The notes below the pieces were generated by a model, which was not told where the DNA came from, ran no database searches, and saw nothing but the letters and a program-made list of their open reading frames with translations. The translations under genes were made by a program, and so were the position numbers. From the NCBI GenBank assembly GCA_031291395.1, contig JARLJD010000115.1:846-64845 (forward strand): a DNA stretch of 64,000 nucleotides. Reading direction: 5' to 3'. The first letter of the stretch is position 1. Every line of letters starts with the position of its first letter. Below are positions 5,492-23,046 of the stretch, in pieces. Source of the stretch: Alphaproteobacteria bacterium. GTDB taxonomy: Bacteria; Pseudomonadota; Alphaproteobacteria; UBA9219.

Positions 5492-5773
5492 CTATATCCG
5501 TCCTTCATTCAGCGCTTCGCGCAGCACTGCTTCGACGCGGACATTGTATCCTGCGCCACTGCTGCGAATACTGGCGATGACGTCCGGCGACAGCTTGAAA
5601 CTTTGTAGTTGCTTCTTCGCGGCTGATTTGGGACGGCCAACTTTGCGTTTCTGCGCATACGCAGCCAGATCGGGAAAACTGTCCCGAAGCCTGCTCGCAT
5701 GAACTTGATCACCCGCGCGCAAGGGACGAACTTCGCCGTTTTTTTCTATCAAAGGGCTATGTGTTTTCCGCAT
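5492..5773 (-). CDS. brnA: BrnA antitoxin (ribbon-helix-helix, type II)
   Basis: 93 aa; conserved GEVRPLRAGD segment; overlaps the upstream brnT by 17 bp, which is the typical BrnT/BrnA arrangement. Confidence 0.75.
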   Translation of the reverse strand: MRKTHSPLIEKNGEVRPLRAGDQVHASRLRDSFPDLAAYAQKRKVGRPKSAAKKQLQSFKLSPDVIASIRSSGAGYNVRVEAVLREALNEGRI

Positions 5774-6029
5774 AAAACTTCTCCTCTCGTTTGTTGGCCT
5801 TGCGCAGACTGATTACGCGTATGTGACAATCGGCGATTGGCTTAAAGCAAAGCACATGCAATCTTGTTCCGATATAGCCGTAGGCGACAATGCGCCGCTC
5901 TCCGTAATCCTTACGCAAATCGTTGATGCGAAGCGCTGTGTCATAATCGAATTTTTCGGCCTCAGAGAAGGGAAGTCCGCGTTCGCTTGCGTTCTTCTCG
6001 CTTTTTGCCGGATCGAACTCGATTTTCAT
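5757..6029 (-). CDS. brnT: BrnT toxin (DUF497 ribonuclease)
   Basis: 90 aa beginning MKIEFDPAKSEKN...ERGL, the canonical BrnT N-terminus. Immediately precedes brnA in the same orientation. Confidence 0.75.
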   Translation of the reverse strand: MKIEFDPAKSEKNASERGLPFSEAEKFDYDTALRINDLRKDYGERRIVAYGYIGTRLHVLCFKPIADCHIRVISLRKANKREEKFYAENT

Positions 6030-6276
6030 GCTAATTATGGTAACACCTGAAATAGGGGGGTGTCAACGCACCGAAACACACGCGTATTTCCTCCAGAAAG
6101 CGAAAGGCTGTTTTTCGCTATAATTGCGCTAAGTTAGGATCCACAAGGGCAACGCTTCCTTCGGTAGGCTGGATTTTATTCGGCCACGCGAGACCAAACG
6201 CATTCGCATGGCGCACGAAGGCCGGATTAAGAAGAAGCCAGCCCTGCGGCACTAGAGGCGCGCCGGAAATGTCCTT

Positions 6277-6897
6277 TTGGGCCGTCTTGTCGCCTTTTTT
6301 ATCCCGATCCTCCATAATTCACCCTATTTTTACCTTTGTCCCGTATTCTTCTGTCATATGTTTAACAGCCTGTTTCAGGAGAACATTATGGGACAAGGGG
6401 GAAAATACGGGGGGATTTCAGGAAAAGAGGGGGAATCTTTTCTAGGCTATGCTGGCTATAGTTTTGGCGCAGCGCCGGATAACAAGGCAAACGATATACA
6501 TGGAAACAGCCCTCTAGGGGAGCCCATAAGGCAAGTGTATCCCGCAAGCGATCTAACCGGTAATAAAGCTTTTAAACCACAGGCTTTAGGCTTTTCGCTC
6601 AATTTTTCGCCCGCGTTAAGTAAAGCGGCTGCCGATAAAGAATGGTTTATGATCGCCGCAGTCTTGAGGAAATATGGCGTTGATGTGCTTTCGACGTGCA
6701 AAAGCGATATTAAAAAGGGTCCGATTGTTCGAAGTTCTTTCACCCGCCTAACATTTAAGACTCCTTTGAAAGATCAAACGGCGCTTACGGCCGCGATCAA
6801 GGAGATGGACAAACTTTATAAAAGCGGGAAGGGATTGCCTAAGAACGATCAGGCGTCGGCAATTGACAAAACGGGGGCGTTGTCCGCTTCTCCCTGA
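6277..6897 (+). CDS. hypothetical protein in a low-GC insertion
   Basis: ORF of 206 aa, or 169 aa from MGQGGKYGG at 6388. GC is markedly lower than the flanks. No recognisable motifs. Bounded by duplicated lptC 5' and brnA/brnT fragments. Confidence 0.4.
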   Translation: MGRLVAFFIPILHNSPYFYLCPVFFCHMFNSLFQENIMGQGGKYGGISGKEGESFLGYAGYSFGAAPDNKANDIHGNSPLGEPIRQVYPASDLTGNKAFKPQALGFSLNFSPALSKAAADKEWFMIAAVLRKYGVDVLSTCKSDIKKGPIVRSSFTRLTFKTPLKDQTALTAAIKEMDKLYKSGKGLPKNDQASAIDKTGALSASP

Positions 6898-6921
6898 TAG
6901 TCTCGACAGGTTGCTTTATAA

Positions 6922-7051
6922 CCGCGGAAACGCCTGTGCGGGAGGAGTGGTTTCGTCGGCTGCTCGTAAGGGACAAACCTCGCCGTTTCTTCCTATCAAA
7001 GGGTTACGTGCTTTCTGCATAAGAAGCTTTGTTATCTACTTCCTGCTGTTT
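6922..7051 (-). pseudogene. remnant of a second brnT-3'/brnA-5' copy
   Basis: Minus-strand translation gives ...AEKQQEVDNKASYAEST* (compare the BrnT C-terminus KREEKFYAENT*). It overlaps MQKARNPLIGRNGEVCPLRAADE...* (compare BrnA MRKTHSPLIEKNGEVRPLRAGD). The fragment is truncated by a stop. Confidence 0.6.
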
Positions 7052-7081: not shown

Positions 7082-7756
7082 ATGAACTCGACACCCAAAG
7101 GCAACGCTCCGTCCGGCAGGTTGGATTTTATTCGGCCGCGCGAGACCAAACGCATTCGCATGGCGCGCGAGGGGCGGATGGCGGTTGTCGTCAGGAAACT
7201 GAGGTTCTGGCTGCCGCTTGTGGCGGCTGGCGTTTTGGGGCTGCTGTTTGTGTGGCCGGATTTGATGCCTAATTTCACGATGACCGATATAGCCAAGAAC
7301 GTTCCCGATCTGGTGATCGACAATCTGCATTACACGGGGATGGACAGCAAAAGCCAGCCCTATTCCCTGCTGGCGGCGCAGGCGACGCGTCCGGCTGCCT
7401 TGCACGGCATCTATGATCTGGTGAAACCCGAAGGCGAAATAACATTGCAAAGCGGGGCTTGGCTGGACGGCAAGGCCGATTACGGGCGCTATGACGAAAT
7501 CGATAAAAAGTTGTGGCTGGGCGGCGATGTACGGCTTTTCCACGACAAGGGCTATCAGCTGACGACCGACGAGGCTCAGATCGATTTGAACACTAACGAT
7601 GCATGGGGGGATAAAAACGTTTTGATTCAAGGGGATTTCGGCACCGTGCGCGGAGTCGGGTTCCGCTTTCTTGACTCGGGTCACACCGTCGTGGTCAATG
7701 GGCCGGCTAAGGCTGTGCTTAGTTTACATGGGAGTATGGATTCTGGTAAACCGTAA
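7082..7756 (+). CDS. lptC: LPS export protein LptC
   Basis: 224 aa; N-terminal transmembrane helix, then the pattern typical of LptC. Followed directly by lptA and lptB. Confidence 0.7.
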   Translation: MNSTPKGNAPSGRLDFIRPRETKRIRMAREGRMAVVVRKLRFWLPLVAAGVLGLLFVWPDLMPNFTMTDIAKNVPDLVIDNLHYTGMDSKSQPYSLLAAQATRPAALHGIYDLVKPEGEITLQSGAWLDGKADYGRYDEIDKKLWLGGDVRLFHDKGYQLTTDEAQIDLNTNDAWGDKNVLIQGDFGTVRGVGFRFLDSGHTVVVNGPAKAVLSLHGSMDSGKP

Positions 7757-7938
7757 CAGTTAAGCTGTCCTTCCCGCGAAGGCGAGATCCATCGTGAGCG
7801 ATAGCGCGCCTAAGAGTCAAACGGTAGTTGTGTTGGAAGCGCCGTTGTTTATATCGGCGCGGACGCACCTCAAGATGGATTCCCGCAATTGCGGGAATGA
7901 CGGCTCTTGCGGTTTAGGGGTTACAATTAAGGATAGAT

Positions 7939-8847
7939 ATGCGCCTATGCGCTGGATTCTTAGCTATGTGTTTCACCCTTGGCGCTCTTGCGACTGCCGA
8001 GGCTAAAAACGCGCATGCGCTGCGGGATCCGAACGCGGCAGCTCCGGCGCAGCAGATTGAGGTGACCGCGGACAAGACTCTGGAATGGTATCAGGATCAA
8101 AACCTGTATGTCGCGCGCGGCAACGCCAAGGCGGTGCGCGGAGATTTGACCGTTACCGCCGATTTGCTGACCGCGCATGAGCGCGAAAAACCCAAAGACG
8201 CAAAGGACAAGAAAACACCCGCCGACAAAAAGGCCGACAACGACGCCGGAGACATCGACAAAATGACCGCTGAAGGGCATGTTGTGATCCTTAAGCCCCA
8301 TGCGCGCATCACGGGCGACCGCGCGGTGGACGATGTCGATGGGCATGTCATTGTCGTGACGGGCGACAATCTGCGCTATGAAACCGACAAGCAGGTGGTG
8401 ACGGCGAAAGATTCTCTGGAATACTGGGATGATAAGAAAATCGCCGTGGCACGGGGCAATGCGGTCGCGGTTAAGGGCGACCGGCATGTCGCGGGCGATG
8501 TTCTGACCGCCGAATTCCGCGACACGCCGAACGGATCAAGCCAGCTTTACAAAATGACCGCCGTCGGCCATGTCACCGTCGTCACCAAAAACGACGTGAC
8601 CCGCGGCGATAAAGGCGTTTACGATGCCGCCCGCGATATCGCGATCGTCACGGGGCATGTGCGCATCACGCGCCCCGACGGCACTGAACTGACGGGCGAT
8701 GTCGGCGAATCCGATTTTGCCGCCAACCAAAGCCGTTTGATGAATGACGGATCGGGGCGCGTGCGCGCTTTGCTGCCCGCCAGAACGACAGAGAAAGCGT
8801 CGAAACCCGCGGCGACAACGCCCGCGCCGCACGGAGAAACACAGTGA
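7939..8847 (+). CDS. lptA: LPS transport periplasmic protein LptA (OstA-like)
   Basis: 302 aa; signal peptide; repeated 'VTADxL...A.GN' OstA-like beta-jellyroll motifs. lptCAB gene order. Confidence 0.75.
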   Translation: MRLCAGFLAMCFTLGALATAEAKNAHALRDPNAAAPAQQIEVTADKTLEWYQDQNLYVARGNAKAVRGDLTVTADLLTAHEREKPKDAKDKKTPADKKADNDAGDIDKMTAEGHVVILKPHARITGDRAVDDVDGHVIVVTGDNLRYETDKQVVTAKDSLEYWDDKKIAVARGNAVAVKGDRHVAGDVLTAEFRDTPNGSSQLYKMTAVGHVTVVTKNDVTRGDKGVYDAARDIAIVTGHVRITRPDGTELTGDVGESDFAANQSRLMNDGSGRVRALLPARTTEKASKPAATTPAPHGETQ

Positions 8848-9635
8848 CAAGCACAGCCAAAGTCGTTCCTCTTACCAAGCCAAAGAAGAAACCCGTGCGC
8901 ATGGCGGTTCCTGACAAGGGCTTGTCGGCGCAGCATCTGGGCAAACGCTATAAGCGCCGTCCTGTCGTGCATGATGTCAGCTTTTCGCTGCAGCGCGGCG
9001 AGGTCGTCGGGCTTTTAGGGCCGAACGGTGCGGGCAAGACGACTTGCTTTTATCTGGTCACGGGGCTGGTCAAGGCGGATACCGGGCGCATTCATATGGA
9101 CGGGCTGAACGTCACCGATTTCCCGATGTATCGCAGGGCGCGGCTGGGGCTTGGCTATCTGCCGCAGGAATCCTCGATCTTTCGCGGCCTGACGGTCGAG
9201 GACAATATCCGCGCGGTTCTGGAAATCGTCGAGTCCGATTACGGCGCGCGCGAAAACATGCTGAACGAATTGCTGGCCGAGTTCGGGATTACCCATTTAA
9301 GGCAAGCGCCTTCTGTCGCTTTGTCGGGCGGCGAAAGGCGGCGTTTGGAAATCGCGCGCGCTTTGGCCTCGCAGCCGCATTTCGTTTTGCTTGACGAGCC
9401 GTTTGCGGGCATCGATCCGATAGCTTTGGGCGATATCCGCGATCTGGTCGTGCATCTGCGCGATCGCGGCATCGGCGTTCTGATCACGGACCACAATGTC
9501 CGCGCCACGCTGGAAATCGTCGACCGCGCTTATATTATTCACGACGGTCGCGTGTTGATGCAAGGCTCGCCGCAAGAGATTATTGAAAACGCCGATGTCA
9601 GGCGGGTGTATTTGGGGGAAGAGTTCAGGATGTAG
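8844..9635 (+). CDS. lptB: LPS export ABC transporter ATP-binding protein LptB
   Basis: 263 aa; Walker A GPNGAGKTT, ABC signature LSGGERRRLEIARAL, Walker B LLDEPFAGID. Overlaps the lptA stop by 4 bp. Confidence 0.9.
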   Translation: MTSTAKVVPLTKPKKKPVRMAVPDKGLSAQHLGKRYKRRPVVHDVSFSLQRGEVVGLLGPNGAGKTTCFYLVTGLVKADTGRIHMDGLNVTDFPMYRRARLGLGYLPQESSIFRGLTVEDNIRAVLEIVESDYGARENMLNELLAEFGITHLRQAPSVALSGGERRRLEIARALASQPHFVLLDEPFAGIDPIALGDIRDLVVHLRDRGIGVLITDHNVRATLEIVDRAYIIHDGRVLMQGSPQEIIENADVRRVYLGEEFRM

Positions 9636-9952
9636 GAAGCGGCAGAGGCATAATAAAACCGGTTTGTTTTCTGCTGGTTTTGTCAGGCTAATCGGATGAT
9701 TTTCGATTTCATCGGAAGTCGAGAAGACCCATATTAATACGATAATATACTGAGAAACAAAGATAGATTTGTGTGGTTGTGTTGCAGATACCCCACGAAA
9801 TACCCCCAAACGTAAAAAATTCCGTTCAAGAAGCGATATTAAGGGTTAATAAATGTTTAATTAAGGGATTGTCAAGCTGTCCCGACGATTATAAAGATTG
9901 GTAACTGCAGGCCATCATCTGCGGCACAAATTTTGCTGTAAAGAAATCTAGC

Positions 9953-10717
9953 ATGACCCCAGACGAACCAAAGCTTCATTTTTCTTTACCTCCGATAACA
10001 GAGGCTATTTTGGCGTTCAATTTTTCTGCGCCCCTAGAAAAGCGGTGGCTAGAAAAAGTTCCAACAAAACTGAAAAAAGAATATGAACTCAAAGCACCGC
10101 TTAAAAATTACTCCGTCAGCATCGAGCAAAGCCCTACGGGGGAGGATAAGTCGTCGATAAAAATTGAAGAACTAGGCTTGCGCTTAGCGAGCAAGGATCA
10201 AACCAACATCCTCCAAATTAGCCAGAATTTCATAACTTTTCATAGGCTTGCCCCATATATAGATTGGGAATATCTTCGCACATCTGCACAAAACGGCCTT
10301 GAAACACTTGATAAATTGGCTGGGGTCACCCCAATAAATAAACTCTCGACTAGATACCTTAATAGGATTGATATCCCTTTTGAAGACCTTGAGAAAAGAA
10401 GCATCACCTTTGAACGGTACTTTGCGCTATATTCCACGCTTCCCCCTGCCTTTGAATCAATGGCAAACGTATACAATGCATGGTCTCGTGCATTTGATGA
10501 TGTTCAGCAAGGCTATAGGTATGTGATTAATTTTTCGCCAGCACCCCCAGCCATATTGGATCACCACTCGTTCAGCTTGGATATTGAAGTTACTTCAATT
10601 GGCGAGATTCCGTCCAAGCGTAGTGATCTATGGGCGTTTGTCGAAAAGTTTAGGAGTGAGAAAAATAAAGCTTTCCTTTCGTGTCTGACGCAAGAGACAA
10701 TAGGGTTATTCAAATGA
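9953..10717 (+). CDS. hypothetical protein, islet gene 1
   Basis: 254 aa in low-GC DNA; no recognisable catalytic motif. Its stop overlaps the next start in ATGA, indicating translational coupling. Confidence 0.5.
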   Translation: MTPDEPKLHFSLPPITEAILAFNFSAPLEKRWLEKVPTKLKKEYELKAPLKNYSVSIEQSPTGEDKSSIKIEELGLRLASKDQTNILQISQNFITFHRLAPYIDWEYLRTSAQNGLETLDKLAGVTPINKLSTRYLNRIDIPFEDLEKRSITFERYFALYSTLPPAFESMANVYNAWSRAFDDVQQGYRYVINFSPAPPAILDHHSFSLDIEVTSIGEIPSKRSDLWAFVEKFRSEKNKAFLSCLTQETIGLFK

Positions 10718-11484
10718 CATTTCAGACAGCTTACACCGATGAGCTTTTCACGCCGAGTGCGGGCAGGCAGCCTTTCGGGGCAAACGCCACTCCCTCTACA
10801 GAGAAGAATTCATTTCCCATGCTCTTTTTGAGCCCAACAATAGGCGCAAGCCTTGATGCACCGATCACGAATAAAAAGTGGACTTGGTCTGCAGAGAGCA
10901 TAACGCCGCCCGATATGGAGACGTTGCTTGTCCATTTGACAGACAACTTTCGAAAAGGAACTTTTGCAGGAAAATCTGGCCTTATATGGGCAACAGATCG
11001 AGATACCAGCAAAGACTCGGGATGGACGGAACGGGAAATCGAACTAGAACAAGTAAATGACAACCTTGCCGAATTGAAAATCTATTACGCGACCGTTGCT
11101 CGATATAAGTCTAAGAATTGGCAGACGCATATCTTTCATGAATTAGACAGGCTTTTGCAATTTGATGCATGGGGGCCTGATGCGTCATTAATCAAGAAAG
11201 AATCTTTCATCTCTTTGATGAAATTCATCGTGTTTGCCCAACCGTTTCGACTTCCGGGCCTTGCTGTTGCAAAAAATGGAAATATGTCAGCCGGCTGGAA
11301 ATTAGGAGAAAGAACCGTAGTAATTGAATTCAAAGAAAATGAAGAGGCCATTGCAATAGTGTCTAAAGTGACCCAGCGGGGAAAACAAAAGGCAGCATGG
11401 CAAGGAAATGTGGGGGCATTAAAAGAGTTTTTGAGCAGTTTTGGGAATTGGGGCTGTTTAGATGAGCAGAAAAAAACAGCCTAA
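10681..11484 (+). CDS. hypothetical protein, islet gene 2
   Basis: Likely start is MTFQ at 10714 (ATGA overlap with gene 1). ~256 aa; no recognisable motif. Confidence 0.5.
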   Translation: MSDARDNRVIQMTFQTAYTDELFTPSAGRQPFGANATPSTEKNSFPMLFLSPTIGASLDAPITNKKWTWSAESITPPDMETLLVHLTDNFRKGTFAGKSGLIWATDRDTSKDSGWTEREIELEQVNDNLAELKIYYATVARYKSKNWQTHIFHELDRLLQFDAWGPDASLIKKESFISLMKFIVFAQPFRLPGLAVAKNGNMSAGWKLGERTVVIEFKENEEAIAIVSKVTQRGKQKAAWQGNVGALKEFLSSFGNWGCLDEQKKTA

Positions 11485-11953
11485 ACAAATATCCCGTCGC
11501 CTCCTTGGAAACGAAGAGCATATCGCGAGATACTGCTATCGTCAGCAAATTCTGCGAGATCCAGAAACGGGCGACGTAATATCAATACTTGATTCCTTTA
11601 AATTGAGGCCCATCGACAAGGGGGAACTATCCGTCGATCAATTTGAAAAACTAGGAAACGATTTTAATGCACGATTAAAAACCGCTGTATCAACCTTTCG
11701 CTCTATGATCAAGCATAGTCCCGTTACAGCGGATAGCATGATCAGCGTTTTAAATGTTGGGGCGGTAAAAGAAATTGGCAGAGGGGCTGGAAAAGAATTG
11801 AAGGTCAAAGATAAGTCGAGACCAGACCGTCCGACTTATGCCCATTTGCTTGGATTGCCGCACGATAATTCTGACAACAGTCTTTTGGCTTCACTGTCTG
11901 ATGAAGGCATAAAGTCTTGCCACTTTATTGAAGTAATCGACAAGTTGCCTTAG
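11462..11953 (+). CDS. hypothetical protein, islet gene 3
   Basis: 163 aa; overlaps gene 2 by 23 bp. Contains an R-x4-H segment (RPTYAH), only weakly HEPN-like. Low GC. Confidence 0.45.
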   Translation: MSRKKQPKQISRRLLGNEEHIARYCYRQQILRDPETGDVISILDSFKLRPIDKGELSVDQFEKLGNDFNARLKTAVSTFRSMIKHSPVTADSMISVLNVGAVKEIGRGAGKELKVKDKSRPDRPTYAHLLGLPHDNSDNSLLASLSDEGIKSCHFIEVIDKLP

Positions 11954-12158
11954 TCTTTGGATTCGCTGGGCAGGGGCACATTGTGCCCTTGTGTTCTCAT
12001 ACACTCGTCAATGATCTTTTTCTTGCCCTCTGGTGTTAATGCATCGTCGGATTCTTTGACCTGTTCATCTGTCATGCTGTTGCGATTGGCGAGATAGCCG
12101 ACAAGCCCAAAGGGGCTGAACATCTTTTCAGCAAGCTGTTTTTGCTTGGATTAGAAAA

Positions 12159-12245
12159 TGGTGCGGTCGAGAAGACTCGAACTTCCACGAGATTGCTCCC
12201 ACAGCGACCTCAACGCTGCGCGTCTACCAATTCCGCCACGACCGC
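12159..12245 (-). tRNA. tRNA-Leu (anticodon GAG)
   Basis: Reverse complement reads GCGGTCGTGGCGGAATTGGTAGACGCGCAGCGTTGAGGTCGCTGTGGGAGCAATCTCGTGGAAGTTCGAGTCTTCTCGACCGCACCA. It has a 7-bp acceptor stem, anticodon loop TTGAGGT, a long variable arm, TTCGAGT in the T loop and an encoded CCA. Confidence 0.9.
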
Positions 12246-12415
12246 ACGTCTGTGATAGGAGGCAGGGGCAAGCCAATAGCAGAAAGGCACTGCCTTTATC
12301 AAGGGGTTATCTGGGGATTCTTTTTTTTGCACGGCTTTTAGCCCGCCTTGCCGATATCTCGTTTGGCGCGTTCGCGGCGGGCCTAAAAATGCGCGTTTCC
12401 CTTTTCGGGTCTAGA

Positions 12416-12477: not shown

Positions 12478-14586
12478 TTAGACAGCGTGCGCCGCCGCCA
12501 GAATAGCCAGCAGCAGGATCGCTACGATGTTGATGATCTTGATCATCGGGTTGACGGCGGGACCGGCGGTGTCCTTGTACGGGTCGCCGACGGTGTCGCC
12601 GGTCACGGCAGCCTTGTGGGCGTCGGAGCCTTTGCCGCCGTAGTTGCCTTCCTCGATGTACTTCTTGGCGTTATCCCACGCGCCGCCGCCCGAGGTCATC
12701 GAGATGGCGACGAAGATGCCCGTCACGATCGTGCCCAGCAACATCGCGCCGAGCGCGGTGAAGGCCTGCGCCTGCCCTGCGACGAAGCGCACGACGAAGT
12801 ACAAAACAATCGGAGCCGCGACCGGAAGCAGGGACGGCAGGATCATTTCGCGGATCGCGGCCTTGGTCAGCATATCGACCGCGGTGCCGTATTCCGGCTT
12901 GGCCTTGCCTTCCATGATGCCTTTGATCTCGCGGAACTGGCGGCGCACTTCCTGCACCACAGCGCCCGCTGCGCGGCCTACGGCGGTCATCGCCATAGAA
13001 CCGAACAGATAAGGCAACAGACCGCCGATGAACAGGCCGACCACGACGAACGGGTTCTGCAAATCGAACTTCACCGGCACATTCGGGAAGTAATGCTGCA
13101 AATCCTGAATGTAGGCTGCGAACAAAACCAAAGCTGCAAGCCCCGCCGACGCGATGGCATAGCCTTTGGTCACCGCTTTGGTGGTGTTGCCGACGGCGTC
13201 CAAAGCGTCGGTCGTGACGCGGATTTCTTTCGGCATGTTCGACATTTCGGCGATGCCGCCCGCGTTGTCGGTCACAGGGCCGTACGCGTCGAGCGCCACG
13301 ACCATGCCCGCCAAAGCCAACATCGTCGTCGCCGCCAAAGCGATGCCGAACAGACCCGCCGTGGTATAGGCCAGAACGATGCCGACGCAGATCACGATCA
13401 CCGGCAAAGCCGTCGATTCCATCGACACGGCCAAGCCCTGAATGACGTTGGTGCCGTGGCCGTTGGCCGAGGCCGCCGCGATGCTGCGCACCGGACGGTA
13501 TTTCGTCGCGGTATAGTATTCGGTGATCCACACCATCAGCGCGGTCACGCCAAGCCCCGTCAAGGCGCAGGTCATCACCTGCATGCCGGAGAGAACCTGA
13601 CCGGAGACTTCGGTCACCGAATCGTTCAGGCCGATCTGCTTGTTGACGACAAGAGCGATCAGCCCCGCCGAAATCACGCCGGTCGCCATAAGCCCTTTGT
13701 ACAAAGCGCCCATGATGTTCTGGCATTTGCCCAAGCGAACGAAGAAGGTGCCGATGACCGAGGCGATAATGCACACGCCGCCGATCAGAAGCGGCAACAG
13801 CATCATCGTCGCGCGCTGTTCGCCCATAAAGAAGCTGGCGGCCAGCAACATCGTCGCCACGATCGTGACGGCGTAGGTTTCAAATAAATCCGCCGCCATA
13901 CCGGCGCAATCGCCGACATTGTCGCCGACATTGTCGGCGATCACGGCGGGGTTGCGCGGGTCGTCTTCCGGAATCCCGGCTTCGACCTTGCCGACCAAAT
14001 CCGCGCCGACATCGGCGCCCTTGGTGAAGATGCCGCCGCCCAAACGCGCGAAGATCGAGATTAGCGAGGCGCCAAAGCTTAGCGCGACGAGGGCTTCAAT
14101 GATCGAACGCATCGACGCTTCGTCCGCGCCGCTCTTCCAGTGCAGAAGCGCGTAATAATAGCCGCTGACGCCAAGCAAGCCGAGGCCGACGACCAAAAGG
14201 CCGGTGATCGCGCCCGCTTTGAACGCAATGTTCAAAGCCGGTTTCATGCCGCCTTCCGCCGCCGCCGCGGTGCGCACGTTGGCGCGAACCGAAACATTCA
14301 TGCCGACATAACCCGCCGCGCCCGAAAGCACAGCGCCGATGACAAAGCCGAGCGCCACATGCGCGCCCAGAAAAGCGCCGAGAACAACGCAAATAACCAC
14401 GCCGACAAGAGCAACGGTCATATACTGGCGGTTCAGATAGGCCTTTGCGCCTTCCTGAATGGCCGCCGCGATTTCCTGCATGCGGGGGGTTCCTGTCGGA
14501 GCCGATAGCACTTGACGCGCCGTAAACAATCCGTACAGCAGGGCAAGAATGCCGCAGCCGAAGATTAGAAAAAACTCGTTACTCAT
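12478..14586 (-). CDS. hppA: membrane-bound H+-translocating pyrophosphatase
   Basis: ~702 aa polytopic membrane protein. Motifs match V-type PPase ([25 protein letters not shown]). Start chosen at MSNEFF. Confidence 0.9.
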
Positions 14587-14734
14587 TGCCTGTCCTCGTG
14601 GGGTTTTGATTGTGAAGGAGAATGCCCTTTGCCGGAGTCGCAAGGGCGCAACCGGCGGTTAAAATGCCCGAATGCGCGCAGGAAGGCAAGAGGGGGATTG
14701 ATTCGGGACGGATGATTCGCGGTCAGACATTCAG

Positions 14735-18854: not shown

Positions 18855-19168
18855 AGCCTGTTCGTATTCGTCCGCGCGCCGACAGAGAAATTGACGCGCT
18901 TGCGGATTATCTCGCGCGCAGCAATGTCAGCGTGGCGTTGCGTTTTCTGGGCTCTGTGCAGGAAGTTTTCGATCTGATCGGCAAACAACCGGGAATTGGC
19001 TCTTTGCGCTATGCCCATTTGCCGATGCTTGAAGGCTTGCGCGTGTGTTCAGTGTCTGGATTTGAAAAGCATCTGGTGTTTTTCATTGAGAGGCACAGTT
19101 ATATTGACGTGATCCGCGTCCTGCACAGCGCGCGCGATCTTCCTGCCGCTCTTGCAGAAGACGAGTAA
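18851..19168 (+). CDS. parE: ParE/RelE-family toxin
   Basis: ~105 aa from MKPVRIRPRADREIDALADYL with HLVFFIERHSYIDVIRVLH: the ParE fold signature. Confidence 0.7.
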   Translation: MKPVRIRPRADREIDALADYLARSNVSVALRFLGSVQEVFDLIGKQPGIGSLRYAHLPMLEGLRVCSVSGFEKHLVFFIERHSYIDVIRVLHSARDLPAALAEDE

Positions 19169-19172
19169 CAAA

Positions 19173-20084
19173 ATGCCCAAACCCCACACTTCCTCCCCCG
19201 TTCACGGCTGGCTAGCACTGGACAAGCCTTTAGGGTTGACGTCGACGCAGGCTTTGGGGCGGGCGCGGCGGCTTTTGGGCGGGAAGAAGGCGGGGCATGG
19301 GGGGACGCTGGATCCGCTGGCGACGGGGGTTTTGCCTTTGGCTTTTGGCGAGGCGACCAAAGTGATTCCCTATGTGATGGACGGCGACAAAGAATATGAA
19401 TTCACGCTGCGCTGGGGCGAGGAGCGGGCGACGGGCGATGCCGAGGGCGAGGTGATCGCGACAAGCGACGCAAGGCCGAACGAGGCGCAAATTCTTGCGG
19501 CAATGCCTGAATTTATTGGCACAATTCAGCAAAAGCCTCCGGCTTTTTCGGCGATTAAGGTGCAGGGCGAACGCGCCTATGACCTTGCCCGCGCGGGGGA
19601 AAAAGTCGACTTGGCGGCGCGCGACGTTCGAATCGATAAGTTTGAACTTATTGACATCATTGACAAAGACAGCGCGAAATTTCGCGTTTCCTGCGGCAAG
19701 GGCATGTATGTGCGTTCGCTGGCACGGGATTTGGCGGAAAAACTGGGGGGCTGCGGTTATGTCGGTGCGCTTCGGCGTACGAAAGTCGGGCCTTTCACGA
19801 TCGAAAATGCCGTTTCGATGGATGAATTGGAGCGTTTGAGTGCTGAAAATGCGGCTTTGACCGCTTTATTGCCCATAAAATCGGCGTTGGGAGCCATTCC
19901 TACCCTGATCTTAACCCCAAATGAGGCCAATACCCTGCGTTTAGGCCAGAGAATTTTGATCCGACCCCAACATGGCACGCTTTTTGAGGCGCCTTTGATC
20001 TTCGCTGAATACGATTGTGTGCCGATAGGTTTGATCGAAGCCAAAGCAGGGGAATTCCGCGTTTTGCGGGGGTTTCATTTCTAA
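19173..20084 (+). CDS. truB: tRNA pseudouridine(55) synthase
   Basis: HGWLALDKPLGLTS...GHGGTLDPLATGVLP with the catalytic Asp motif. ~303 aa. Confidence 0.9.
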   Translation: MPKPHTSSPVHGWLALDKPLGLTSTQALGRARRLLGGKKAGHGGTLDPLATGVLPLAFGEATKVIPYVMDGDKEYEFTLRWGEERATGDAEGEVIATSDARPNEAQILAAMPEFIGTIQQKPPAFSAIKVQGERAYDLARAGEKVDLAARDVRIDKFELIDIIDKDSAKFRVSCGKGMYVRSLARDLAEKLGGCGYVGALRRTKVGPFTIENAVSMDELERLSAENAALTALLPIKSALGAIPTLILTPNEANTLRLGQRILIRPQHGTLFEAPLIFAEYDCVPIGLIEAKAGEFRVLRGFHF

Positions 20085-20272
20085 AAACTGTGACTTTTCA
20101 GCATCTTTAGTTTGGCTTCCCTTTTCTCTCAAATCTCGTCATGCAATCGCATACTTTTGCCGGTTATCATTTCAGTTTTCGTAGAAGCGGTTTATGTCGT
20201 TCTGCAGTATAATCGATTTACAACCGATCCTTAATCAGCCCCTCGCCTTATAGGCGAGGGGCTGATTGGTTG

Positions 20273-21448
20273 TTACAGATGCGGGACACCAACTGTACGG
20301 ACTACAAATTTGTTGGATATTGCTCCGGGAGCGTTGTCGGAAAGAAAGGCCTTGCGCTTATTAGATTTTTCATAAGCAGCCATTTTGGCTTTAAGCGCTG
20401 CTTCCCTTACCTCTTTGTTACCTGTCATATACCTAGGCAATAGATCGGCACCAACCACGATAATATCATCTGATACGGGCGCGTGCTTTACATCAAGGCC
20501 TTGGTTCCGATTTTTTCTCAACGCATTGATCAATTCCTGAGGTGACATATACACCGCGTTGCCGAGGCTTTTGCTAAGTTTTTTAGAGCCGTCCGCAAAC
20601 AAAAGCGGAACATGAAGAAAATCCCCCCTGTATTGGTCTATTCCCAACCCAGCTGCTAAATGCTCCATCAACGAAGTTCGATTGGTAGGAAAATGATCAA
20701 TTCCTATGACCCATAGATCGGGTTGTTCAGCCGCTAATCTGGCAGCCTGCAGCATTCGGAATTGCATCGCCCATGAAAGATTTTTAGCCTTTTGACTAAA
20801 ATGATAATTCCCCATGAATTTGTGCCAGCCGTCAATTAATAGGCCCTCTGAGGACTTTTTCAGCGTTGCATCTGTAACGGGGGCGTGGCAGTCGGGGCAT
20901 AAGGGCCAGACAAAACCTTTTTTGCCTTGAATAGGAGTTTGTGTGAAAAACCCAATAACGCGTCCAATGCCTGCAGAATGATGCATTGCGCTAAGAACGG
21001 TTTTTTCAAATTCCGGTGTACCAACGAGTTCGGAGGCGCGACGAAAATCAAGCTTCACGTAAGGGAACCGAGCGCCGATCGTACCGCGAACAACTCCCTC
21101 GATGACGGGTTGCCAAAAGTCGGCAAGACTGCCTTTATGACCATTGGGGGCGGGCATGAATTGGAACGTCGTGCTTCCCGGATACATATTTGCGGCATTG
21201 GCAGATTCACGGGTTCCATCCGCGCCGACATACTTCACAGGTTCAATATCATTAAGCCATATTTGAAGCCTAAATTCTGGCTTTTCACGATTGATGTCTT
21301 CATAGCGCTCACATAGCAGATAGGGGTAGGCTATTACAGCCGCCATGTTGCCCGCATGCAAGCCGTAAGGTCTGATACCAACGCCTATTTTTTCATTTCC
21401 CTTTGCCTCGCTGACCCAATAGGTCAAACCTCCCCATCCGATGTGATT
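20273..21448 (-). CDS. class-I aminoacyl-tRNA-synthetase-like protein (LysRS-I/TrpRS-like catalytic domain, no anticodon-binding domain)
   Basis: HIGH-region variant GIRPYGLHAGN (compare LysRS-I P-S-G-x-x-H-x-G-N and TrpRS GAQPSGELTIGN). KMSKS variant KLSKSLGN. ~391 aa from MNHIGWGG, where LysRS-I is ~520 aa. Low-GC islet. Confidence 0.55.
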   Translation of the reverse strand, partial: NHIGWGGLTYWVSEAKGNEKIGVGIRPYGLHAGNMAAVIAYPYLLCERYEDINREKPEFRLQIWLNDIEPVKYVGADGTRESANAANMYPGSTTFQFMPAPNGHKGSLADFWQPVIEGVVRGTIGARFPYVKLDFRRASELVGTPEFEKTVLSAMHHSAGIGRVIGFFTQTPIQGKKGFVWPLCPDCHAPVTDATLKKSSEGLLIDGWHKFMGNYHFSQKAKNLSWAMQFRMLQAARLAAEQPDLWVIGIDHFPTNRTSLMEHLAAGLGIDQYRGDFLHVPLLFADGSKKLSKSLGNAVYMSPQELINALRKNRNQGLDVKHAPVSDDIIVVGADLLPRYMTGNKEVREAALKAKMAAYEKSNKRKAFLSDNAPGAISNKFVVRTVGVPHL

Positions 21449-21753
21449 CATTTTTACAATCTCTATTTTAAATATTAATCTTTGAAATACCCTATAATTT
21501 AAGGGGCTATTTGCGTCGGTCTTATATCTTGCATTTTTGCAATTTGCCAATTCTTTTTTACTTTCATGGCCGTAAGAGTTTTGTTTGTAAGCTCCTTACA
21601 CATAGCTTTGTGCGATGGTTTGAGGGATAGAAAGATTCCCAAACTTTCCCCTTCCCATCTCCCCTGCTTCCCGCTAAAAAAAACTGCAAGGCGACAGGCT
21701 CGTTTGCGTTCACCGGATGCCTTGCTCCGGAACGTTTTAACCGTCGTGATCCT

Positions 21754-23046
21754 ATGAAAAACGTTGTCGTTGTGGGTGCCCAGTGGGGCGATGAGGGCAA
21801 GGGGAAAATCGTCGATTGGCTGTCGTTTCGCGCGGATATCGTCGTGCGCTTTCAAGGCGGGCATAATGCGGGGCATACGCTTGTTATCGACGGCGTCACC
21901 TATAAACTGAATCTGCTGCCTTCGGGCATCGTGCGCGAGGGCAAGCTGTCGGCCATCGGCAACGGCGTGGTCATCGATCCGTGGCATCTGATTAAAGAGA
22001 TCGACGCGATCCGCGAAAAGGGCGTGCATGTCGCGCCCGACAATCTGGTCATAGCGGAAAACTGCCCGCTTATTCTTCCCGTCCACGGCGCGTTGGACCG
22101 TGCGCGCGAGGCCGCGCGGGGCGACGCCAAAATCGGCACGACGGGGCGTGGCATCGGCCCCGCCTATGAAGACAAAGTCGCGCGCCGCGCTATACGCATG
22201 TGCGATCTGGCCGAGCCGGAGATTTTGCGCGCCAAGCTGGAATTCATGCTGTTGCATCACAACGCCTTGCTGCGCGGCTTTGGGGCGGAGGAATTCGATC
22301 TTGAAAGGCTCTATCAAGAGATTATGATTATCGCCCCCAAAATCCTGCCCTATGTCGGCGTGGTCTGGGAAATTTTGGAAACGGCGCGCAAAGCGGGAAA
22401 ATTGATGTTGTTCGAGGGCGCGCAGGGCGCGATGCTGGACATCGACCACGGCACCTATCCTTTCGTTACCTCCAGCAACACGGTCGCGGCCAACGCGGCG
22501 ACAGGCTCTGGCGTGGGATCGAAAACCGTCGGGCGCATCGTCGGCATTTGCAAAGCCTATACCACGCGCGTGGGCGCTGGCCCCTTCCCGACCGAGGATA
22601 CAAGCGAGGACGGCGAAACGCTGGGTACGCGCGGCAAGGAATTCGGTACCGTCACGGGGCGTCGGCGGCGTTGCGGCTGGCTGGACGCCGTCGCGGTACG
22701 TCAAGCGGTCAAGACAGGCGGCATCGACGGGATCGCGTTGACCAAGCTCGATATTCTCGACGCGTTCAAGGAATTGAAAATCTGCCGCGCCTATAAACTG
22801 GGCGACAAGGTCATCGACTATCTGCCCGCAGGGCAACAGGCGCAAGCCGCGGTCGAGCCGATCTATGACCTCTGCGAAGGCTGGAATTGCAGCACCCGCG
22901 GCCTGCGCAGCTGGGCCGACCTTCCCGCGCAAGCCCTCAAATACATCCGCCGCGTCGAAGAACTGATTGAAGCGCCCGTGATTTTGCTTTCGACCAGCCC
23001 CGAACGCGACGACACGATTTTGATGAAAGACCCGTTCGCGGATTGA
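21754..23046 (+). CDS. purA: adenylosuccinate synthetase
   Basis: 430 aa beginning [21 protein letters not shown], with GHNAGHT: canonical PurA. Confidence 0.95.

Follow-up and report, generated by a model that had tools for sequence, protein, structure and literature searches.

A three-gene cassette encoding a predicted ADP-ribosyltransferase-fold protein beside tRNA-Leu in an alphaproteobacterial genome is a candidate conflict module

In a 64,000-nucleotide stretch of an Alphaproteobacteria bacterium (UBA9219; GenBank assembly GCA_031291395.1, contig JARLJD010000115.1, positions 846 to 64,845), called the window below, we found three small coupled genes in a low-GC islet between lptB and tRNA-Leu(GAG). 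The same trio recurs as a cassette in other, unrelated neighbourhoods. Gene 1 belongs to a family that is named in NCBIfam but has no function, gene 2 belongs to no described family, and gene 3 is predicted to adopt the fold of the ADP-ribosyltransferase (ART) superfamily. We put the chances at about even that the trio is a tripartite toxin-antitoxin (TA)-like conflict module with an ART-fold effector. The cassette consists of the following features.

9636..9952, plus strand: intergenic leader of the cassette, a 317-bp AT-rich spacer
9953-10717, plus strand: gene 1, 254 aa, TIGR04255
10714-11484, plus strand: gene 2, 256 aa counted from the ATG start
11462-11953, plus strand: gene 3, 163 aa, predicted ADP-ribosyltransferase-superfamily fold

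A preliminary description of the window, made from its letters alone, had noticed three co-directional open reading frames (ORFs) joined by overlapping stop and start codons. Their coordinates and lengths were confirmed: genes 1 and 2 are joined by a 4-bp ATGA overlap and genes 2 and 3 overlap by 23 bp. The NCBI annotation of the same metagenome-assembled genome (MAG) calls three proteins with the same lengths (P4M13_058xx). Compared with homologs of 64-75% identity, genes 1-3 show a proportion of nonsynonymous differences (pN) of 0.14-0.28 and a proportion of synonymous differences (pS) of 0.72-0.88. The ratio of nonsynonymous to synonymous substitution rates (dN/dS) is about 0.05-0.06 between the window and locus L001, where dS is unsaturated. 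The three genes are real coding sequences and the intact copies are under strong purifying selection. The comparison is one of lineages, and the selection seen in it does not postdate the loss of a carrier element. The leader has a GC content of 0.34-0.37 in 9700-9899. A probable lptB terminator hairpin was identified by eye at ~9655-9690; a sigma-70-like site at 9719-9746 is weak, the promoter match being at chance level.

Profiles were built for the three families and run against all fetched loci. The order TIGR04255-like, gene 2 C-terminal-domain-like, gene 3-like is found in every locus of adequate length that was reached through gene 2-like or gene 3-like proteins, and the same ordered trio is present in at least eight other metagenomic lineages in unrelated neighbourhoods. 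Amino acid sequence identity among the trio proteins falls to about 25-35%. The gene 1 family profile matches the first gene of every complete trio, the 4-bp overlap of genes 1 and 2 is kept across the trio loci, and genes 2 and 3 are 0-10 bp apart or overlapping. The individual loci are listed here.

L006 and L007: same population as the window
L003 and L008: an uncultured proteobacterium MAG, with 64%, 45% and 58% identity to window genes 1, 2 and 3
L010 and L011: gene 1 cut by the contig end
L012: serine recombinase directly upstream of the trio; genes for DnaN, SSB, Dam methylase, SRAP and Fic around it
L013 and L014: two TIR_2 genes upstream of the trio, tyrosine integrase downstream
L015: trio after a terminase gene, followed by the tRNA 3' fragment GGTTCAAATCCTAGTCCCCCAGCCA
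L016: trio in fixed order
L018 and L019: trio directly after tRNA-Thr(TGT), followed by a phosphoribosyltransferase gene
L025 (278-2052): all three genes frameshifted, beside two transposase genes and an MmeI C-terminal fragment

Since the order is shared by distant lineages and the neighbors differ, the trio is taken as a conserved unit that moves between neighbourhoods, usually as mobile-element cargo. The preliminary description had proposed a search for the trio as a cassette in unrelated genomes. It was indeed found there in the same order, in several cases on mobile elements or beside TIR genes. The tRNA fragment of L015 (7340-7384) lies ~250 bp downstream of the trio and comprises the T-arm, the acceptor end and CCA; ARAGORN and Rfam detected no full tRNA at 7340-7384, and the fragment is probably an att remnant at the end of a prophage. 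Some copies of gene 3 are damaged. In L003 (1870-2226) and L008 (6606-6959) the gene ends at residue 118 with loss of the Y126/GLP-DNSD part, and no frame continues, so that it looks like a naturally disarmed copy. For L025, the frameshifts point either to decay of the cassette or to an assembly rich in indels. Truncation (L003/L008) or frameshifting (L025) is a frequent fate of toxin genes and agrees with a gene whose retention carries a cost. A separate observation concerns the gene that follows the trio in L018 (7177-7731) and L009 (732-1286): it encodes a phosphoribosyltransferase domain (PF00156, E 9e-9) and starts 60 bp downstream of the gene 3 homolog on the same strand. This gene, seen in one lineage, may belong to the module as its fourth member or may simply be a neighbor with no connection to it.

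Genes 2 and 3 have no match in Pfam, NCBIfam, PADLOC, PHROGs or PDB sequences, and a word-index search returned only two to three relatives per protein. Genes 2 and 3 were then joined as one query for an exhaustive phmmer search of a set of 1.84 billion representative sequences, in which 453 matches were found at E<=1e-3. About 130 of the 150 best matches align with gene 2 residues ~112-250 only (proteins of ~200 aa), and 19 of these 150 cover the whole length of gene 3 (118-186 aa long). As judged from these alignments, gene 2 appears to be composed of a conserved C-terminal domain (about residues 112-250) behind a variable N-terminal part of ~110 aa, and it falls in no described family. Comparison by hhalign of gene 2 with the middle genes of L012, L013 and L010 gave E values of 1e-41 to 1e-53. 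None of 42 gene 2-like proteins is a member of a Pfam or NCBIfam family. None of 21 gene 3-like proteins is found in the Pfam/NCBIfam families (including the ART families) or matches PADLOC (E<=0.1). The gene 2 and gene 3 family profiles matched no PDB sequence, and one scan of viral contigs for further loci was negative. A protein found in these searches, P0015, looked like a natural gene 2-gene 3 fusion, but this reading was rejected, because all three genes are broken across frames in its contig (L025).

The preliminary description had recommended a fold check on the three proteins, and for gene 3 this gave a usable model. AlphaFold2 prediction with a 21-sequence family alignment, built from the representative search, reached a mean predicted local distance difference test (pLDDT) score of 91.1 and a predicted template modeling (pTM) score of 0.82 (five models, pLDDT 87-91); a 3-sequence alignment reached pLDDT 36.7 only. 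Fold matches of the model include, with their scores, DarT (5.3, 5.3, 4.5), Tse2 (5.2), CC0527/DUF952 (5.2), a RES toxin (5.0) and Tne2 (5.0). Further matches are NarE, heat-labile enterotoxin, AvrPphF-ORF2, pertussis-like ArtA, TreX, OspC3, Scabin, MbcT, pierisin and others. About 25 of the first 31 fold matches belong to the ART superfamily; DUF952 and BC2332 are counted here as members, which we take them to be from the ART literature. The model contains the split beta-sheet of the ART type. On this basis gene 3 probably has an ART-type fold, and we hold this with good confidence. Residues R23, C25, S57, E62, G106, Y126, G131, P133, N136 and L141 are conserved in the gene 3 family, H20 is commonly present, and D135/D138 do not vary among the 11 sequences of the closer subset. 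In the model, R23 (after H20, in the first strand) and S57 (in the strand 55-60) seem to be placed like the Arg and Ser of R-S-E enzymes, as compared without superposition. The conserved polar residues (R23, S57, E62, Y126 and N136, with D135/D138 in the closer subset) suggest an enzyme. The predicted fold would fit an NAD+-using enzyme that transfers ADP-ribose or cleaves NAD+. An R-x4-H segment, which the preliminary description had noted as a weak hint in gene 3, did not hold up: R123 and H128 vary across the family. A HEPN reading of the segment is also rejected, because the model is alpha/beta and not all-alpha.

Gene 1 matches the NCBIfam model TIGR04255 over positions 4-251 of 252 with E 3.3e-29 (102.5 bits versus a cutoff of 30), and the first genes of L008, L012 and L013 match the same model with 96-102 bits. 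The preliminary description had seen no recognizable motif in any of the three proteins. That has to be corrected for gene 1 (TIGR04255, E 3e-29); genes 2 and 3 remain without a family match. Gene 1 has no match in Pfam, PADLOC or PDB. The NCBI model ("sporadically distributed protein") gives the family no function, and a literature search retrieved no paper mentioning TIGR04255. TIGR04255 genes also occur outside the trio. Vibrio parahaemolyticus plasmid CP063527.1 (L024, 158-2105) encodes TIGR04255, a 179-aa uncharacterized ORF and a zeta-toxin family kinase (Zeta_toxin, PF06414, E 3e-12) that overlaps the 179-aa ORF by 4 bp. This three-gene layout matches that of the window, and its last position holds a different type of toxin. 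Two small coupled ORFs follow TIGR04255 on a Crinalium plasmid, and on a Thermus megaplasmid TIGR04255 lies between a VapC/CopG pair and a cas6 gene. In the P2-like Ralstonia phage YO139_2 (ON170239.1, L023, 380-2058), TIGR04255 is located at the end of the record. A 165-aa ORF overlaps it by ATGA, and a 147-aa ORF comes next. By eye the two phage ORFs recall the gene 2 C-terminal domain (DDWDGFGS...GGEVVFEW) and gene 3 (VYRRV...SVAF...PSV...NPAHALI); hhalign was not significant. For the TIGR04255 partners in Crinalium, Thermus, Vibrio and the Ralstonia phage, comparison with genes 2 and 3 gave no significant similarity at the sequence or profile level.

TIGR04255 thus repeatedly precedes a pair of small coupled genes, the last of which is a recognized toxin in one case and the ART-fold protein in the trio. 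Going by the Vibrio plasmid, the gene 3 position can apparently be filled by another toxin type (zeta toxin). The link of TIGR04255 to downstream toxin-like pairs appears to be undescribed. A broader proposal is that three-gene toxin systems of a broad class share TIGR04255 as a so far unrecognized subunit with a sensor or regulator role, while their effectors are interchangeable. These systems would travel as cargo of prophages, integrative elements and plasmids and confer immunity by abortive infection. The effectors in this class would be the ART-fold protein here, the zeta-toxin kinase in Vibrio, and uncharacterized small proteins in Crinalium, Thermus and the Ralstonia phage. In this view the gene 3 family would form a new clade among ART toxins, with a non-canonical site (R/H...S...Y...D-N-S-D) and possibly a new target. 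We offer this proposal tentatively and consider it doubtful as a whole.

The surroundings of the cassette in the window are as follows.

7082-9635, plus strand: lptC, lptA and lptB, upstream of the islet
9718-9728: distal copy of the 11-bp repeat GTCGAGAAGAC in the islet, with its partner at 12166-12176 inside the tRNA
11950..12123, minus strand: 57-aa ORF, a lipoprotein gene remnant that adjoins the tRNA 3' end
12159-12245, minus strand: tRNA-Leu(GAG), located by ARAGORN
12478-14643: H+-pyrophosphatase gene (hppA), next after tRNA-Leu

The islet (9690-12158) has a GC content of 0.432, below that of all 616 sliding windows of the same length (mean 0.562, sd 0.035). GC at third codon positions (GC3) is 0.42-0.44 in genes 1-3 versus 0.68-0.79 in lptA, lptB and hppA. 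The preliminary description of a lower-GC segment between lptB and tRNA-Leu, abutting the 3' end of the tRNA and lacking an integrase, is thereby borne out. The segment has the lowest GC in the 64 kb, and ARAGORN places tRNA-Leu(GAG), the sole tRNA in the 64 kb, on the minus strand with its 3' end towards the islet. No integrase ORF is present in the islet and no further ORF of at least 50 aa fits 9636-12158. The data support a compositionally foreign segment beside a tRNA.

Of the features expected for a tRNA-integrated island, abutment on the tRNA 3' end and deviant composition were found; an integrase and direct repeats of the displaced end were not. The 11-bp repeat GTCGAGAAGAC is present where the preliminary description had located it, but its interpretation as attL/attR is not supported. 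In shuffled sequences the tRNA and the islet shared an 11-mer in 2.4% of cases (P ~0.02), which makes the repeat mildly unusual; an unrelated exact 12-mer repeat as well as exact 10-mer repeats also occur within the same 3.1 kb. A true distal att site must keep the displaced tRNA 3' end. The 7 nt beside the distal repeat copy are ATCGGAA versus TGGTGCG at the tRNA end, a match of 1/7. Eleven perfect positions followed by no similarity are not the decay pattern of a duplicated tRNA end. From this comparison the distal copy is probably not an att remnant.

The junction on the tRNA side gave a second argument against the attL/attR interpretation. A 100-aa ORF in locus L002 matches the 57-aa ORF with its C-terminal half (51% identity over 49 aa, E 7.5e-17). 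The L002 ORF is an intact lipoprotein gene, convergent to gene 3, with a signal peptide and a lipobox (LLAGC). The copy in the window lacks the signal peptide and the lipobox and is a 5'-truncated gene remnant. Because the lipoprotein gene is cut at the tRNA side, we read this junction as a deletion scar that also took any integrase. All contigs encoding an identical LptB also carry the islet, as seen in an exact-LptB look-up. A metagenome scan with the exact tRNA found three contigs, none of which is syntenic with the window, and a scan of genome contigs for relatives found only the MAG of the window itself and no syntenic relative. The islet may be the trimmed remnant of a horizontally acquired element, and the three-gene module would be its surviving cargo.

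Two other low-GC patches were observed in the window. A BrnT/BrnA toxin-antitoxin pair is located just upstream of lptC (5492-6029, minus strand), in a patch with GC lowered to 0.47-0.49 (about 5600-7000). The pair was identified by Pfam on the identical contig L006 (BrnA_antitoxin 850-1131, BrnT_toxin 1115-1387; offset +4642 to the window). With this pair upstream and the islet downstream, accessory toxin-type modules are present on both flanks of the lpt operon. Outside these, the only other part of the window in which 2.5-kb windows fall under GC 0.50 (0.48-0.50) is at about 19100-22500.

The genes of the trio are small, adjacent, co-directional and coupled, and their distribution is patchy and mobile, as in tripartite TA systems. 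If the trio works as such a module, gene 3 would be the effector or toxin, which would use NAD+ to ADP-ribosylate nucleic acid or protein, or would simply consume it, and thereby stop growth. Gene 2 would be the cognate antitoxin or neutralizer, made just before gene 3 from the same message. It may act through the conserved C-terminal domain, and the variable N-terminal part may be labile or regulatory. Gene 1 would be an accessory sensor, regulator or stabilizer that decides when the neutralizer fails, for example upon phage infection. Release of the toxin would abort the infection or, alternatively, stabilize the carrier element. Cassette conservation, the mobile and defence contexts and the ART-fold effector strengthen the suggestion of an undescribed conflict-related system, which the preliminary description had put forward for this trio. 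The conflict-system candidate stands on the cassette, the mobile and TIR contexts, the ART fold and the lack of a PADLOC, Pfam or PHROG family, but the anti-phage role of the trio is something that we infer.

Several points weigh against a toxin-based conflict module. Toxicity and neutralization are suggested only by gene order, gene size, the gene 3 fold and analogy, and the roles proposed for genes 1 and 2 are guesses. The contexts of L008 and L016 contain no mobile-element or defence neighbors. With no PADLOC match and no literature on TIGR04255, a role in defence is unproven. The canonical H-Y-E or R-S-E triad could not be mapped on gene 3, and no conserved Glu is found at the expected strand (126-130); Y126, D135, N136 and D138 are conserved near this strand instead. 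The active site of gene 3, if present, is non-canonical.

Among known systems, CmdTAC (PD-T4-9) is by analogy the closest match to the trio in logic. CmdTAC protects against phage with a toxin, an antitoxin and a chaperone, the toxin being an ADP-ribosyltransferase that acts on mRNA; the chaperone senses a phage capsid protein, the antitoxin is degraded, and the ART modifies mRNA (Vassallo, Doering & Laub 2024, PMC11618068). It resembles the trio, as proposed here, in having three small coupled genes, an ART effector restrained by a partner, and a third protein that controls release upon infection. Its chaperone is SecB-like, whereas gene 1 of the trio encodes a TIGR04255 protein of ~250 aa with no Pfam SecB match. 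CmdTAC is named in the order toxin-antitoxin-chaperone, whereas the putative toxin in the window is the last gene. No PADLOC match was found for genes 1-3 at E<=1, which answers a check suggested in the preliminary description, or for the 21 gene 3 relatives at E<=0.1; the PADLOC models presumably include PD-T4-9.

DarTG consists of an ADP-ribosyltransferase toxin acting on single-stranded DNA (ssDNA) and a macrodomain antitoxin. Genes 1-3 and their relatives have no DarT/DUF4433 or macrodomain match in Pfam and NCBIfam, and DarTG has two genes whereas the window cassette has three. RES-Xre, MbcT-MbcA and NatRT contain NAD+-degrading RES-domain toxins. No RES match was found in Pfam, and gene 2 carries no Xre helix-turn-helix or DUF2384. 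These toxins are similar to gene 3 at the fold level only, and the window cassette adds a third gene. The trio at most works like CmdTAC, DarTG or RES-Xre and belongs to none of them. We place it close to the ART-toxin modules; its toxin family and its third component would both be new.

Other explanations were considered for the cassette. The trio could be a pure addiction or stabilization module, whose sole task is to keep its carrier element, be it a prophage, integrative element or plasmid, in the cell, with no part in antiviral defence. Its location on or beside mobile elements and the occurrence of TIGR04255 trios on plasmids are consistent with this, and the architecture fits an addiction module as well as it fits a conflict module. 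However, the carrier element is gone from the window and the cassette is still intact, and the adjacency to TIR genes in L013 and the prophage-end position in L015 are typical of defence cargo. We consider a purely addictive role rather unlikely, and note that addiction and defence roles are compatible with each other. The fold itself may also mislead: gene 3 would then be a small alpha/beta protein with some other role, such as a structural or regulatory one in a mobile element, and the trio would not be toxin-based. Foldseek comparison of the gene 3 model to PDB found nothing significant (best E 0.13), and among these non-significant rows number 1 (AvrPphF) and number 5 (NarE) are ART-fold proteins. 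One weak, unnamed match to the model was found in a viral fold library. A misleading fold is judged unlikely.

Within the ART superfamily, gene 3 could be a KptA/Tpt1-like enzyme for processing or repair of nucleic acid ends (2'-phosphate removal or 5'-phosphate ADP-ribose capping) and not a toxin; genes 1 and 2 would be accessory, and the cassette would repair RNA or counter damage. The N-terminal RNA-binding lobe bears the R-H-R-R residues of Tpt1. The 163 aa of gene 3 can accommodate just one ART lobe, and the RNA-binding lobe is missing. Its identity to the KptA/Tpt1 RNA 2'-phosphotransferase is about 10%, and no KptA/Tpt1 match in Pfam or NCBIfam was found among the 21 gene 3 members. The context of gene 3 is a mobile cassette whereas that of KptA/Tpt1 is tRNA splicing or repair, the remaining fold matches are toxins, and a zeta toxin occupies the corresponding position in the Vibrio locus. 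Such an end-processing role is very unlikely.

Should the trio prove to be a conflict module that acts through an ART-fold effector, TIGR04255, so far named but functionless, would gain its first functional context, and a new sequence family would join the ADP-ribosyltransferase toxins. ART toxins have recently given unexpected targets, ssDNA for DarT and mRNA for CmdT. The module would be compact, with three genes in less than 2 kb. The apparent exchange of effectors (ART-like or zeta toxin) downstream of an unchanging TIGR04255 gene would then help in the search for more of them.

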